A DNA stretch of 60,198 bases from Candidatus Hadarchaeota archaeon (GTDB taxonomy: Archaea; Hadarchaeota; Hadarchaeia; Hadarchaeales; JAWBSP01). Both the position numbers and the translations under genes were made by a program. Shown piece by piece: positions 40,657 to 44,407 of the stretch; the stretch's first letter is position 1, and each line of letters begins with the position of its first letter. Below the pieces are notes generated by a model. The model was given only the letters and a program-made list of their open reading frames with translations, did not search any database and was not told the DNA's origin. The stretch is taken from positions 1 through 60,198 of the forward strand of contig CAYYWO010000002.1 of assembly GCA_964474885.1 (NCBI GenBank), read 5' to 3'.

Positions 40657-41433
40657 TTGAGATCCACACCCCTACAGGGAAAGGCTAGTTGGATTAGAAG
40701 GATCCCGGAACTGGCCAAGCATGCGAAATTGGTTTACTTTGTTGAAGAGCCAACCAGTATGCGGATCCCCAAGGGTTCGCTGGTCTTCACTTGCAACAGG
40801 GAGGTCGCGAAGTCCCTACGGTCCTCCATCCTCATAGACTCTAGTTTTCCGGGAAAAGAGGAGCTTTACGACCACATCCTCTACGAAGGGTGCAGACTCG
40901 GCAAGCTACGCCCTGGGGACTGGGTGATCATCTCCCATCTGAACGGTGGGGATGGGGACTCCATAACGCAGAAGAAAGTGCCCGACTGGATCGTTCTCCT
41001 CGTCCGGCCGCCTGTCTTTGAAACCATACAATTCGCAAAGATCCTGTCCCGGGAGGGCATAGGGGCTTCCTTCCTCATCGGGGATGAAAGGCGGCTTAGA
41101 AGGGTGGTGAAGAGGAGGATCCTGCGGTTCAATCCGTTCAGGGGGAACGAGGTGCTCATAACCCGGCACGAGTACTGGCAGGATCTGAAGTTCTTCGCCA
41201 AGCTGGACGGAGCCTTCCTCATCGATCCCCAGGGCAGAGTAATAGACTGCGCCGTGCAGCTGGACTTGGGGGAGGTCGAGATCGAGCTGAGCGGAGGGAC
41301 CAGGCATTATGCCGTCGCCTCCGCAACTAGAGCGGCCGGATGCACGGGGGTTGTCGTCTCCGAGGAAAACAAAACGATCAGCATTTTCCAAGAGGGAAGG
41401 AGAGTCCTCCAAATAGGACCACTAAAAAAATAA
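40657..41433 (+). CDS. Diadenylate cyclase (DacZ-like)
   Basis: EGIGASFLIGD, LDGAF, GTRH, VVVSEE. Confidence 0.8.
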   Translation: MRSTPLQGKASWIRRIPELAKHAKLVYFVEEPTSMRIPKGSLVFTCNREVAKSLRSSILIDSSFPGKEELYDHILYEGCRLGKLRPGDWVIISHLNGGDGDSITQKKVPDWIVLLVRPPVFETIQFAKILSREGIGASFLIGDERRLRRVVKRRILRFNPFRGNEVLITRHEYWQDLKFFAKLDGAFLIDPQGRVIDCAVQLDLGEVEIELSGGTRHYAVASATRAAGCTGVVVSEENKTISIFQEGRRVLQIGPLKK

Positions 41434-41443
41434 AAACAAAAAA
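41424..41443 (-). terminator. Oligo-T terminator of the surface protein gene
   Basis: A-tracts AAAAAATAAAAACAAAAAA on the + strand just downstream of the minus-strand stop at 41473. Confidence 0.45.
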
Positions 41444-41472: not shown

Positions 41473-44352
41473 CTACCTCCTCCTGAAGATGGCGACTGCA
41501 GCCAGGATGAGTGCGATGATCACTAGGATGGTGGCATAAGTTGCCCAAGGTGTCACGGTGCGTGTCACTGTCAGTGTCTCGATGTCAGACTGGTTGCCCA
41601 CCTTGTCGGTAGCTCTCAAGGTGATCACGTTGACGTCTGGCTGCAATGGCACAGATACTGAGAAGCTCCCGTCCGCATTGATCGGCACCTGCGTGGAGAA
41701 CGTGCCGCACTGAACGGTCAAAACTATCTCATCGTAGGTCTCCCAGTCGTCCTTTGCAACGGTACCCTTGACCACTATAGTTGACTTATCAGTCTTCACC
41801 TCCTTGGTGGTGGGTTCGGTTATCGTTACGCTAGGCTTGCTCGCATCCACGAACACCGTTCCGAAGGTCTCCAAGCTGCTCTCGTTTCCGGCTGTGTCGA
41901 TGAGCTTGGCCGTTATCGTCAGGGCCTGACCCTGCGTCAGGTTGGACAGGGTAACGCTCCACTTGCCGTCGGATCCCACAGTCACTGACCGAACCTCCTG
42001 CCCGTTGATGTAGATCTTCAAGGTTGCACCAGGTTCTCCCGTCCCTTCCAGCGTTAGGGTGGCCTGCCTCATGGTGTACGGTGAGGCTGGTGTGGTCCCC
42101 AGTAGCGGGCTCCAGCTTGGAATAGTGGGAGCAGACGGTGGCTCGGCGTCCACAGTGAACTCGATGTTCTCCATTACCCTGTGCGGGGCCTTGCCCTCTC
42201 TGGAACTCATGGAGTCCCCAGCGAATACCACTAGGTTAAACTTCACCACACCTGTTAGCGTTCCCAGTGAGAAGGTGTTCTCGAAGGTGTAGGGTGCCGT
42301 TATGCCGAAGACATTCGAAACCACGTTCTCGATGTTCTCGACCTTCGGGTGGGTCTTTGGTGTTAGGATTACCGGTTGGGCTTTACCTTCTATGTAGAGA
42401 GCCACCACGTAGCCCCTGTCGAAGTTCTCATTATCCAAGTAGTTATCAAGAATATTTTCATTGCAGAAGTTCTCGATGCCAAGAACAGTATCCCTGAAGT
42501 TCACAGTGATGGTTATCTTGTTGTCCGGCACATCCTTCTTACCCAAGAGGGCGCCTGGCTCGGGTGAGATCACGTTTATGACCGGCGGGCTGAGATCTAT
42601 GTACACGTTTTCCACGTTTTCCTCTCCCACGTTCCCTGCCTTGTCTATGATCCTCGCCCCGATGGTGTGCTTGCCCTCCGTTAGGGTAAGGGTAAAGCTC
42701 ACCAAGCCCGTGGGGCTGGCCTTGCCGCTTGCAGCAACCGTGTTGTCCACCAGCACCTCGAGCAGGAGGTTCTCTGGCGAGTAACCTGGCGGTGTCCACA
42801 CTAAGCTGTCGTGGTTTTCATTGAGGGTTGCCGAAATCGACCAAGTCGACTTGTCCTGGATGCCTATTGGAATGCCCAAGGACATCAGGTCCGGCGGGCC
42901 AGGGGCCCGGCGGTCGACGAACACCAGCTTGTCCTTCTTTATGGTCGAAACGGTGTTTCCGACTTCGTCCCTAGGGTTGATCACCTCAATGGTCAGGTAA
43001 CCATCTCTGTTCTCGTTCTCCCCCGTGGTGTAAACGCCGATATAGGTCTTGTTGTCTGTGGTTGTCATCTCTATCACGACGTTCTCGCCCCTGTTCTCCC
43101 GCACGATAACGTTGTCGAACCAGAAGACTTCATCCGAGCTAACCGTGATGGTGATGTTCTCGTCCTTACCTACCCAAGTCTTGTCCACTTCCACGTTGAC
43201 GGTTAAAGAGTTGTCTACGGTTATCTGGAAGGCCCACTCCTTGGGAAGACCGGTGATGTCTACAGTTTGGACGTAGAAAGTGTAGGTTCCGGCAGCGGAT
43301 GGACCTGTGATGGCGAAGGGGAAGCTCAAGTTCTCGCCCGCGGCGATCTTATTATCTCCTATCCCTGTCCAAGTTCTGTTGTCGGGGTCCTGCATCCAGC
43401 CCTCAGGAACGTTATCGACAGCGCTCGCCTCCACCCTGGTATCCCTCAATCTAATCACTTTTGTGTTCTCTGCTATCTTAACCTTCAGGGAACCCAGAAT
43501 TCCTACCACAGTGTCAGGCGGTATCACCACGATGCCCTCCACCAGCTCCACTACCTCCCCTGCCATGGAAACTCCAGCAAGGGAAGGACTGGTGGTGAGG
43601 CTAGAAGAAACGCACCTGAAGTGGTTGTCGCTCACTACCCTCACCTTGATCCCAGCAGCAACGGCTAGGTTCTCGTTCTCCCTCCAGTTCTCGTTTGGTG
43701 CCACAACTTGTGCCAGCAGGTTCTCCGGCAAGCGGAGTACATTTTCACCGGTATCGAGGATGGCCAAGGTGTCTTGCAGGAGCCTGAGTCGGTTGTCGCT
43801 CACTAGGGCAACGGTCAGGGGTTGCGAAACTTTCAGGTTCTCCAAGTTATCGGTCATCAACTTTTCGTTTAGTAAATTCTCCACATTCTCCGTGTAGTAA
43901 TTCCCTATGGGCTCCATGATGGCGTTTTCCATCAACTGATAGCGTGTGCCACCAAAGTAGAAGTTCTCATATTTGGGGATTATTACGTCCGTGTTTTCGA
44001 AGATAATGAAATTGTCGGCGTTGTCAAGCTCTACCTCCACAATGGTGCCGGCCGGTAGAAGCACCAAGTTGTCATCGACTAAATAGACTATGTTGTCTTT
44101 CGGCACCTTTTTTAGGGGTGCAAAGCCATCCCACCCTGAAGGTAGCCTCGCCAGAGTAACTTGCTTTATAGCGTCCGAACCCTCAGCATTAGCGATTGTG
44201 ATGGTTAGAATCCCTTTCCAACCTCCCTTCACCTTGGTCCGGTCGGGGGTCACAGTGACTGTGTGAGCTGCTGACGCTGTCCCTGTGAACATGAATGCCG
44301 CTACCTGTGCTAACAAGACGGCTGCAATCGCCACTGCCACGTGTCCCTTCAT
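41473..44352 (-). CDS. Large secreted surface (probable S-layer) protein with Ig-like domains and a C-terminal TM anchor
   Basis: Signal peptide (ASA|A); repeated DxxGN Ig-like motifs; C-terminal TM plus RRR; strong BRE/TATA and GGGGGTGA RBS. Confidence 0.85.
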   Translation of the reverse strand: MKGHVAVAIAAVLLAQVAAFMFTGTASAAHTVTVTPDRTKVKGGWKGILTITIANAEGSDAIKQVTLARLPSGWDGFAPLKKVPKDNIVYLVDDNLVLLPAGTIVEVELDNADNFIIFENTDVIIPKYENFYFGGTRYQLMENAIMEPIGNYYTENVENLLNEKLMTDNLENLKVSQPLTVALVSDNRLRLLQDTLAILDTGENVLRLPENLLAQVVAPNENWRENENLAVAAGIKVRVVSDNHFRCVSSSLTTSPSLAGVSMAGEVVELVEGIVVIPPDTVVGILGSLKVKIAENTKVIRLRDTRVEASAVDNVPEGWMQDPDNRTWTGIGDNKIAAGENLSFPFAITGPSAAGTYTFYVQTVDITGLPKEWAFQITVDNSLTVNVEVDKTWVGKDENITITVSSDEVFWFDNVIVRENRGENVVIEMTTTDNKTYIGVYTTGENENRDGYLTIEVINPRDEVGNTVSTIKKDKLVFVDRRAPGPPDLMSLGIPIGIQDKSTWSISATLNENHDSLVWTPPGYSPENLLLEVLVDNTVAASGKASPTGLVSFTLTLTEGKHTIGARIIDKAGNVGEENVENVYIDLSPPVINVISPEPGALLGKKDVPDNKITITVNFRDTVLGIENFCNENILDNYLDNENFDRGYVVALYIEGKAQPVILTPKTHPKVENIENVVSNVFGITAPYTFENTFSLGTLTGVVKFNLVVFAGDSMSSREGKAPHRVMENIEFTVDAEPPSAPTIPSWSPLLGTTPASPYTMRQATLTLEGTGEPGATLKIYINGQEVRSVTVGSDGKWSVTLSNLTQGQALTITAKLIDTAGNESSLETFGTVFVDASKPSVTITEPTTKEVKTDKSTIVVKGTVAKDDWETYDEIVLTVQCGTFSTQVPINADGSFSVSVPLQPDVNVITLRATDKVGNQSDIETLTVTRTVTPWATYATILVIIALILAAVAIFRRR

Positions 44353-44392
44353 TCTTCACCCCCTTTTTGTTTTGCAAACCAACGTATAAGTC

Positions 44393-44407
44393 TATTTAAG
44401 CCTTTCG
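44393..44407 (-). promoter_or_regulatory. BRE/TATA promoter of the surface protein gene
   Basis: CGAAAGG-CTTAAATA on the minus strand about 40 nt upstream of the ATG; RBS GGGGGTGA at 44356-44363. Confidence 0.6.

Follow-up and report, generated by a model that had tools for sequence, protein, structure and literature searches.

An [Asp/Glu]-Asn signature of extracytoplasmic proteins in Hadarchaeales and a candidate non-canonical N-glycosylation sequon

The acceptor N-X-S/T is treated as the common site of N-glycosylation across each of life's three domains, and the WWDXG motif as a constant of the enzyme, the oligosaccharyltransferase (OST) (PMC11407970, PMC8342417). WWDYG and the DK/MI motifs are described as forming the pocket that binds Ser or Thr, which explains the requirement for a hydroxy amino acid (PMC8342417), and a review of 2024 gives AglB, PglB and Stt3 a shared WWDXG in which only the fourth position varies (PMC11407970). 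Exceptions are reported from haloarchaea: the Haloferax volcanii glycoproteome includes three confident non-canonical sites with no common motif and otherwise consists of N-X-S/T, and Asn-Ala-Ser variants in Halobacterium are attributed there to Zeitler et al. 1998 (PMC8241124). Here we examine a 60,198-nucleotide stretch of DNA (the window; contig CAYYWO010000002.1 of assembly GCA_964474885.1, positions 1 to 60,198 of the forward strand) from an uncultured hot-spring archaeon of Candidatus Hadarchaeota, and in it the gene of a 959-residue candidate surface protein, P0001, most of whose Asn residues directly follow Asp or Glu, a context written below as [D/E]-N.

Like the canonical sequon, [D/E]-N is centred on Asn, extracytoplasmic and enriched in surface proteins, and avoids Pro at +1; unlike it, its determinant is the acid at -1, with no preference for Ser or Thr at +2. 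A further likeness is to the Campylobacter PglB sequon, D/E-X-N-X-S/T, in which an upstream acid contributes to recognition, as we propose for [D/E]-N. PglB reads this acid by an Arg residue. The Hadarchaeal context differs from the PglB sequon in that the acid stands at -1 instead of -2, the hydroxy amino acid is dispensable and the lineage is archaeal. As with the haloarchaeal exceptions, it would indicate that AglB in archaea can act outside N-X-S/T; unlike those exceptions, the non-canonical context is here the dominant and selected one, with no sign of selection on the classical context. P0001 itself resembles archaeal S-layer glycoproteins, including that of Nitrosopumilus (PDB 8c8m), in having a signal peptide, a chain of beta-sandwiches and a C-terminal transmembrane (TM) anchor; unlike 8c8m it is known from its sequence and a model, and the match in fold is a generic one. 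A literature search for Hadarchaeal glycosylation, a [D/E]-N acceptor context or an AglB lacking WWD found nothing. Our reading, held with slightly better than even confidence on comparisons of sequences, is that [D/E]-N may be a non-canonical N-glycosylation sequon which replaces N-X-S/T in Hadarchaeales, most likely through an AglB with an altered pocket.

Distribution of [D/E]-N among proteins and compartments

Exact counting agrees in all numbers with the hand count that underlay the original prediction, made from the sequence of the window without database searches: 46 of the 66 Asn residues of P0001 directly follow Asp or Glu (29 Glu, 17 Asp), against a mean expectation of 8.19 (standard deviation 2.59, maximum 19), and none of 20,000 shuffles reached 46. 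The sites occur at approximately one per 16 residues of the ectodomain and end at N729; six Asn residues lie at positions 783-920, within the last 230 residues, and none of them is [D/E]-N. Seven N-x-S/T sites are present, and the four that coincide with [D/E]-N (N325, N341, N399 and N434) match the earlier estimate of about four. Some [D/E]-N sites stand in tandem at a spacing of 2-4 residues (ENVEN, DNLEN, ENILDNYLDNEN and ENIEN, at residues 156-172, 628-643 and 673-676; 42424-43887, minus strand), and these clusters sit in lower-confidence stretches of the AlphaFold2 (AF2) model, some of them in loops. Two N-x-S/T sites in the membrane-proximal stalk, G-N-E-S at N823 and G-N-Q-S at N920, were rejected as glycosites: they form part of the invariant D-x-A-G-N signature of Big_13/Big_6-type domains and are probably structural.

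The bias extends through the genome in a compartment-specific manner. From the assembly (G000; 1,183,335 bases in 60 contigs, 92.09% complete), 1049 non-overlapping open reading frames (ORFs) of at least 100 residues were called heuristically by a simple longest-ORF rule, and divided into classes by a home-made heuristic for Kyte-Doolittle hydrophobic segments. The observed-to-expected ratio (O/E) of [D/E]-N was 0.94 in ORFs without a hydrophobic segment (n=761), so that the lack of bias previously noticed among cytoplasmic proteins of the window holds genome-wide; it rose to 2.37 in ORFs with an N-terminal hydrophobic segment (n=90), 2.64 in multi-TM ORFs (n=93) and 2.76 in other TM ORFs (n=105). 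When all 400 dipeptides of the secreted and membrane set were ranked, EN came first (z 26.3, O/E 2.73), DN second (z 18.2, O/E 2.48) and SP a distant third (z 9.3), while DQ (0.64), EQ (0.89), DS, ES, DD, ND and NE were at or below expectation in the secreted set. Among offsets from -6 to +6 around Asn, acidic residues were enriched at -1 only (2.75x), all others falling between 0.91 and 1.22, with 1.01x at -2. Because the enrichment is confined to position -1, to Asn and to the membrane and secreted set, the signal is directional, Asn-specific and specific to extracytoplasmic proteins.

Nearly all of the most significant excesses belong to large proteins that begin with a hydrophobic segment. 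The strongest case in the genome is a surface giant of 7543 residues, in which 314 of 488 Asn residues are [D/E]-N (72.3 expected), followed by a giant of 2838 residues (80 of 138; 15.6 expected); six further biased proteins range from 19/33 to 48/79, with 3.2 to 9.9 expected. Within the 2838-residue giant the sites populate FN3-like arrays (4-7 per 100 residues) and are sparse in blocks of Trp-solenoid (0-2 per 100 residues), and the last ~440 residues are likewise avoided. The two acids do not behave identically throughout: in secreted ORFs shorter than 600 residues EN is enriched 2.01x and DN barely (1.12x), and in the giants both are enriched. This weakness of DN in small proteins could mean that whatever reads the motif favours Glu over Asp, or that the domain make-up differs.

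Residues flanking the sites were compared with those flanking other Asn residues of the same proteins, in 250 membrane or secreted ORFs from high-GC contigs. Pro is avoided at +1, occurring at 24 of 1090 [D/E]-N sites (2.2%) versus 173 of 2078 other Asn residues (8.3%; p=3.5e-13), and is favoured at -2 (11.6% versus 4.0%; p=3.4e-15). Avoidance of Pro at +1 is a classical sequon rule (PMC8342417). The other element of that sequon leaves no trace, with Ser or Thr at +2 in 145/1090 (13.3%) and 274/2078 (13.2%), respectively (p=0.96). In cytoplasmic proteins the difference in Pro at +1 is weak (6.5% versus 9.1%) and that at -2 is absent. Overall, [D/E]-N is an order-wide tag of extracytoplasmic domains, with Pro favoured at -2, avoided at +1, and Ser or Thr at +2 neutral.

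A compositional or repeat artefact, whether a single beta-helix Asn ladder, a copied domain, or a bias of DNA or codon pairs, might be suspected from the giant, multi-domain and partly repetitive nature of several of the most biased proteins, and from the near absence of DN enrichment in the shorter secreted ORFs where EN is enriched. However, this account appears very improbable to us: no shuffle attains the count in P0001, the bias is directional and Asn-specific, and cytoplasmic proteins from the same DNA are unbiased, while the bias itself is seen at both 40% and 58% GC. A hexamer bias at the DNA level was rejected, as the codon pairs at the P0001 sites (GAG-AAC 20, GAC-AAC 11 and six others) match the ordinary codon usage of the gene, and therefore no single DNA hexamer accounts for the bias. 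A repeat artefact was likewise rejected, since non-repetitive housekeeping membrane proteins carry the bias and the solenoid repeats of the 2838-residue giant avoid it.

Sites across folds and through the evolution of a family

Pfam names assigned to 20 ORFs served to locate sites in domains known to face outward. An MMPL/RND transporter has 6/8 and 2/4 of the Asn residues in its two large loops as [D/E]-N; the proportion is 5/13 for the P1 loop of SecDF, 4/5 for an ApbE domain, 5/10 for the PDZ loop of a site-2 protease and 7/21 for a phosphodiesterase domain. Two membrane-anchored proteins with a transglutaminase core (L118, 7/11; L123, 7/17) and a LamG lectin also carry sites. AglB itself has 7/11 in its C-terminal globular domain and 0/6 in its other loops. 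In the 7543-residue giant, the 468 residues past the last TM segment have 2/12 (1.8 expected), versus 311/472 before it. Eight loop sites of the MMPL transporter could be aligned with its relatives; one is common to an orthologue from Hadarchaeal family f5, and none to the outgroup, so that the fold does not require [D/E]-N. The original prediction had named a finding that would undo it, namely an enrichment limited to P0001 and explained by Asn ladders of a buried beta-helix. That scenario fails, in view of the genome-wide bias, its presence in non-solenoid folds and its avoidance of solenoid blocks.

The family of P0001 provides a record of how such sites have been kept and lost. All 11 orthologues taken from related Hadarchaeales genomes, at 32-58% identity, contain 38-48 [D/E]-N among 60-76 Asn residues (7.3-10.7 expected), and 19-36 of the reference sites are shared in pairwise comparisons; N-x-S/T does not exceed expectation in eight of them and is slightly above it in three (15 versus 14.3, 13 versus 11.3 and 12 versus 10.0). 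Across 33 members of the family, [D/E]-N accounts for 1317 of the 1944 Asn residues in the N-terminal ~720 residues (245 expected), and in the C-terminal stalk of ~230 residues the dipeptide is depleted (10 of 230; 22 expected), which extends to these members the site-free membrane-proximal end that had been remarked upon in P0001. Over 81 site columns in 33 homologues, acid and Asn coincide in 1142 cases, both are missing in 1043, the acid stands alone in 296 and Asn alone in 104, giving an odds ratio of 38.7 that is descriptive, since the homologues are related by descent. Both Asp and Glu are used in 52 of the 81 columns. Occupancy is bimodal, being at least 0.7 in 27 columns and at most 0.3 in 44, the latter representing lineage-specific sites. 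This combination of conserved sites, turnover and interchange of Asp and Glu is the behaviour expected of a sequon, and the conserved share fits a structural role equally well.

Such a role defines the alternative that we weigh most carefully, although we consider it unlikely on balance: [D/E]-N would be an unmodified structural or physico-chemical motif of extracellular beta-rich proteins in this thermophilic lineage, a turn, a strand N-cap, or a pair of Ca2+ or other cation ligands that stiffens loops and lattice contacts, and the change in AglB described below would be unrelated. By DSSP assignment on the AF2 model, 39% of the P0001 sites gather at loop-to-strand junctions (offset -1 to 0 from a strand start), versus a background of 20%. 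Residues 85-310 form many short strands and are solenoid-like, a third of the site columns are highly conserved, and Asn is enriched 1.99x genome-wide at +3 of a [D/E]-N site, producing EN-x-EN tandems that suit chelation of a cation better than the attachment of two bulky glycans. On the other hand, unrelated folds carry the motif, and equivalent positions lack it in the outgroup and largely in f5; cytoplasmic beta-proteins of the same organism have no bias; more than half of the columns are lineage-specific; and the avoidance of Pro at +1 and preference for it at -2, seen at extracytoplasmic sites only, is a signature of the recognition type. The sole match to a family named for Ca2+ (Ca_tandemer, in NCBIfam a Ca2+-stabilised family) covers residues 759-825, inside the stalk, which is the site-free part of the protein.

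The compartment could also be explained by any extracellular enzyme, and a reaction at Asn that does not involve AglB has been considered: cross-linking or deamidation of a transglutaminase-like kind, or a spontaneous succinimide or isopeptide chemistry that would stiffen the wall at high temperature. The membrane-anchored transglutaminase-core proteins encoded by this genome themselves carry the motif, and Lys is depleted beside [D/E]-N sites (0.37-0.39x at -2 and +1). Transglutaminases act on Gln, however, and DQ and EQ are both below expectation; nor does any enzyme change track the motif in the way that the AglB pocket does. Known succinimide and isopeptide chemistry is governed by the residue that follows Asn, or by residues at a distance, rather than by that at -1. 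We judge an explanation of this kind improbable.

A divergent AglB and its phylogenetic distribution

The interpretation of [D/E]-N as an acceptor for glycosylation draws on the only AglB homologue of the genome, P0003 (746 residues; G000:C1:98397-100637, locus L017 2398-4638). This protein is readily overlooked. The Pfam STT3 profile has no match in the 92.09% complete genome and does not report P0003, although it matches 28 of the 31 genomes in the related set, including both of the same genus, one match from which led to P0003; against NCBIfam archaeo_STT3 the protein reaches only 20.7 bits. Annotation pipelines could consequently score this genome as lacking N-glycosylation. Its affinity is nevertheless clear at the level of profile and predicted fold, as the AglB family profile matches the PDB entry of STT3B (E 4.8e-17), and the AF2 model of P0003 (predicted local distance difference test, pLDDT, 78; predicted TM-score 0.73) has the OST fold, a GT-C membrane domain with a C-terminal globular domain, and Foldseek ranks 1-19 all being PglB, STT3 or AfAglB (E 1.4e-15 to 1e-10, TM-score ~0.5).

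Like the canonical enzymes, the Hadarchaeal protein combines an STT3 fold with an aligned DxE motif: HMMER pairs F-D-R-E with Y-D-N-E of STT3, corresponding to D153-R-E155, in which the Asp is invariant and the Glu present in 16 of 18 sequences. Residues invariant in Hadarchaeales AglB are W468, S469, G471, H472, D39, D153, E293, R369 and R372. D39, within T-T-S-D-S-G, was matched by eye to the first catalytic motif position; Y-A-[SGT]-E, whose A291 and E293 are invariant, resembles by eye the SVSE form of the TIXE / SVSE motif of loop EL5 but lies outside the HMMER alignment, in a low-pLDDT loop (279-294); and R369 and R372 are assigned to catalytic motifs by eye only. With these features the sequence otherwise looks like that of a working OST. 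It is unlike STT3, AglB and PglB at the WWDYG motif, which the original prediction had proposed to inspect together with the DK motif. HMMER aligns V-V-A-I-E-W-S-Y-G-H of P0002, the same-genus orthologue, with S-W-W-D-Y-G-Y of STT3A, and P0003 reads V-V-A-V-E-W-S-Y-G-H. In all 32 Hadarchaeales AglBs that cover the region, [E/Q]-W-S-[Y/F]-G-H stands in place of WWDYG, in alignment with that motif of STT3A, STT3B and yeast Stt3, while the outgroup retains WWDYGY. A DK-like region, recognised by eye from the motif D-xx-K-xxx-M (PMC8342417), reads G-R-R-x-D-x-x-[R/W]; it continues from D541 as D-xx-[R12/W4/Q/F]-xxx-[M9/I4/L3] on a helix (538-547) that lies 74 residues past the WWD position, and two invariant Arg residues, R538 and R539, precede D541.

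These features suggest a mechanism in which the divergent AglB would transfer a glycan to the Asn of [D/E]-N. Its Ser/Thr pocket may have been rebuilt, with WWDYG giving way to [E/Q]-W-S-[Y/F]-G-H and the DK region to G-R-R-x-D-x-x-[R/W], and the invariant Arg538 and Arg539 would contact the carboxylate at -1, in a manner comparable to the Arg of PglB. Marking of surface proteins at a non-canonical [D/E]-N site by an altered OST was among the possibilities put forward in the original prediction, and each computational check that it proposed (comparison of secreted with cytoplasmic proteins in this genome and its relatives, inspection of AglB, and the refuting scenario of a single protein with an Asn ladder) lends support to it at the level of sequence.

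The distribution of motif and enzyme across taxa can be followed in a set of 66 Hadarchaeota genomes, 65 of which belong to one order and one of which (G031) is the single outgroup. In the outgroup, whose AglB keeps the classical pocket motif, acids at -1 of Asn are present at 1.08x in membrane and secreted proteins and 0.82x in cytoplasmic ones (381 kb sampled). Within the order, the enrichment is 4.24x in G003 (family f2, GC 58%), 1.88x in G018 (f5, GC 40%) and 1.56x in G011 (f3, GC 48%), with cytoplasmic values of 0.93-1.06 in the same samples; it is therefore present in families f1, f2, f3 and f5, and reaches 3.15x in membrane and secreted ORFs from high-GC contigs of our genome, compared with 0.94 in its cytoplasmic ones.

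A wider search with the AglB profile, over 1.84 billion representatives, recovered 1928 AglB-like proteins at E <=0.001. Among the best 150 of these, which were typed, 40 have xWS[YFH]G and are themselves rich in [D/E]-N (O/E 3.51), 90 have WWDxG (O/E 1.30), two have YWDYG, and 18 are fragments or others. Six proteins of intermediate score, from a sister clade represented in metagenomes (P0083, P0085, P0088, P0091, P0092 and P0096), have HWELGY, DWEIGY, PWPVGY, DWYLGY, PFGIGH or HWEMGY instead of WWDYG, and 33 of their 101 Asn residues are [D/E]-N (7.3 expected). The cluster table places two sister-clade paralogues on one 250-kb contig. A search of the 66 Hadarchaeota genomes did not show the sister-clade AglB as an additional gene, and a locus search with P0083 over genome and metagenome contigs gave no confirmed locus. 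It is an evenly balanced proposition, in our estimate, that Hadarchaeales and this metagenome-only sister group have rewritten the N-glycosylation code, with an OST that lost the WWD pocket and reads [Asp/Glu]-Asn, the acid being at -1.

The assembly also contains what amounts to an internal control. Apart from a core at 52-64% GC, 28 contigs, among them C13, C16, C17, C18 and C24, have less than 45% GC and together comprise 141,103 bases (~12%). In 38 membrane or secreted ORFs of these low-GC contigs, Ser or Thr at +2 of Asn is enriched 2.29x, with acids at -1 at 0.98x; the figure for Ser or Thr at +2 falls to 1.12x on the high-GC contigs. Two secreted proteins of C13 (39% GC) have 18 and 22 N-x-S/T (7.6 and 8.6 expected) with 6/49 and 4/54 Asn residues as [D/E]-N. 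The same method thus picks out the classical sequon in low-GC foreign DNA and [D/E]-N in Hadarchaeal DNA. For one of the C13 proteins, none of the 65 remaining Hadarchaeota genomes yielded an orthologue, and C13 may represent a mobile element or a virus, or else DNA mis-binned from a neighbouring organism. Small DNA-binding-like and P-loop proteins are encoded on C13 beside the two large secreted proteins.

Several considerations weigh against glycosylation as the explanation. The support is statistical and comparative, not chemical. The changed AglB and the motif are both traits of one clade and represent about one evolutionary event plus one outgroup genome, so that a single phylogenetic contrast and the composition of AglB itself are what connects the motif with AglB; a pocket rebuilt in this way might also have become less specific or have ceased to function. 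N-x-S/T is likewise unenriched in the outgroup (0.96), and absence of the classical signal is hence not diagnostic on its own. The widely conserved site columns and the position of sites at strand starts also fit a structural cap or turn. The stalk, although extracellular, has fewer sites than expected and demands an additional assumption. We know of no archaeal S-layer with a glycan coat as dense as one site per 16 residues, nor, to our knowledge, is there a precedent for recognition of an acidic residue at -1 by an STT3-type enzyme. Both the calling of ORFs and their TM classes depend on home-made heuristics, and a positive-inside test with a home-made TM finder, for which 63 of 93 polytopic proteins were usable, gave O/E values of 1.92 inside and 2.14 outside; this poor separation probably reflects errors of topology.

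Were the glycosylation interpretation correct, the Hadarchaeal AglB would be the first natural OST whose sequon needs no hydroxy amino acid, and the N-glycosylation code would be something that can be rewritten in nature. The S-layer and giant adhesins would carry up to one site per 16 residues, and sequon-based prediction of archaeal glycoproteins would miss Hadarchaeales. Glyco-engineers would have an interest in an OST whose sequon is minimal and orthogonal. The proposal is directly testable, with a single enzyme family and a single dipeptide to consider and predicted sites in the thousands. Enrichment cultures of Hadarchaeota have been reported (PMC10811742, PMC11297162). Should the Asn residues prove unmodified, [D/E]-N would still be a very strong, lineage-specific and unexplained rule of extracellular protein sequence.

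The gene of P0001 and its surroundings

Features of the P0001 gene are collected below, together with the position of the 7543-residue giant. The signals for expression, which occupy a block at 44356..44407 on the minus strand, and the oligo-T tract had been pointed out earlier as promoter, ribosome-binding site and terminator; all are visible in the DNA, as resemblances to consensus only. The cleavage site of the signal sequence was assigned without a dedicated prediction tool, and the AF2 helix 6-21 has low pLDDT.

Table 1. Positions of the P0001 gene, its expression signals and protein regions, and of the most biased surface giant
Feature	Position	Strand	Basis
Coding sequence of P0001, 959 residues, probable S-layer or major envelope protein, stop codon included	41473..44352	minus	ORF list and translation
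N-terminal signal sequence, ~residues 1-28: hydrophobic helix 6-21, then TASA/AH (slash marks putative cleavage)	44269..44352	minus	sequence; AF2 helix
Ectodomain, residues 86-729, with all 46 [D/E]-N sites	42166..44097	minus	site positions and AF2
Membrane-proximal stalk, residues 735-932: a pair of Ig-like domains of Big_6 / Big_13 / Glucodextran_B type, no [D/E]-N	41557..42150	minus	Pfam, NCBIfam
C-terminal TM anchor, helix 936-955, and RRR cytoplasmic end	41476..41550	minus	sequence, AF2 helix
B recognition element (BRE)-like CGAAAGG	44401-44407	minus	read from sequence; consensus resemblance only
TATA-like CTTAAATA; BRE/TATA-like AAAGG-CTTAAATA spans 44393-44407	44393-44400	minus	consensus resemblance only
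Shine-Dalgarno GGGGGTGA, 3 nt ahead of ATG	44356-44363	minus	read from sequence
Three oligo-T runs (6, 5, 7 T), 30-50 nt past the stop codon, archaeal terminator-like	41424..41443	minus	read from sequence
7543-residue surface giant	G000:C10:15331-37962	minus	

The AF2 model of P0001, built from 33 homologues (mean pLDDT 86.5), shows a beta region of short strands (~85-310) followed by Ig-like sandwiches to ~735. A fold search with this model returned generic multi-Ig chains only (titin, complement, contactin; TM-score <=0.2), among which the Ig-domain S-layer protein of Nitrosopumilus maritimus, PDB 8c8m, ranked 17th (TM-score 0.20). A role as S-layer or major envelope protein is plausible from the layout of the sequence. 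P0001 is matched in 26 of the 31 related genomes searched, a number that includes the genome under study, and its named homologues are hypothetical proteins of 'Candidatus Hadarchaeales archaeon' or 'Hadesarchaea archaeon'. A search for the P0001 locus across genome contigs gave no confirmed locus.

On the opposite strand, the neighbours of the gene are unrelated housekeeping genes, encoding fumarase alpha and beta, a DAC-domain protein, a NUDIX protein, EF-1 beta and TiaS, and the P0001 gene thus stands alone. The DAC-domain gene (40657-41433, plus strand), whose product of 258 residues has the diadenylate cyclase (DAC) domain at its C terminus, converges on the P0001 gene, and its stop codon falls within the oligo-T terminator tract of the latter.

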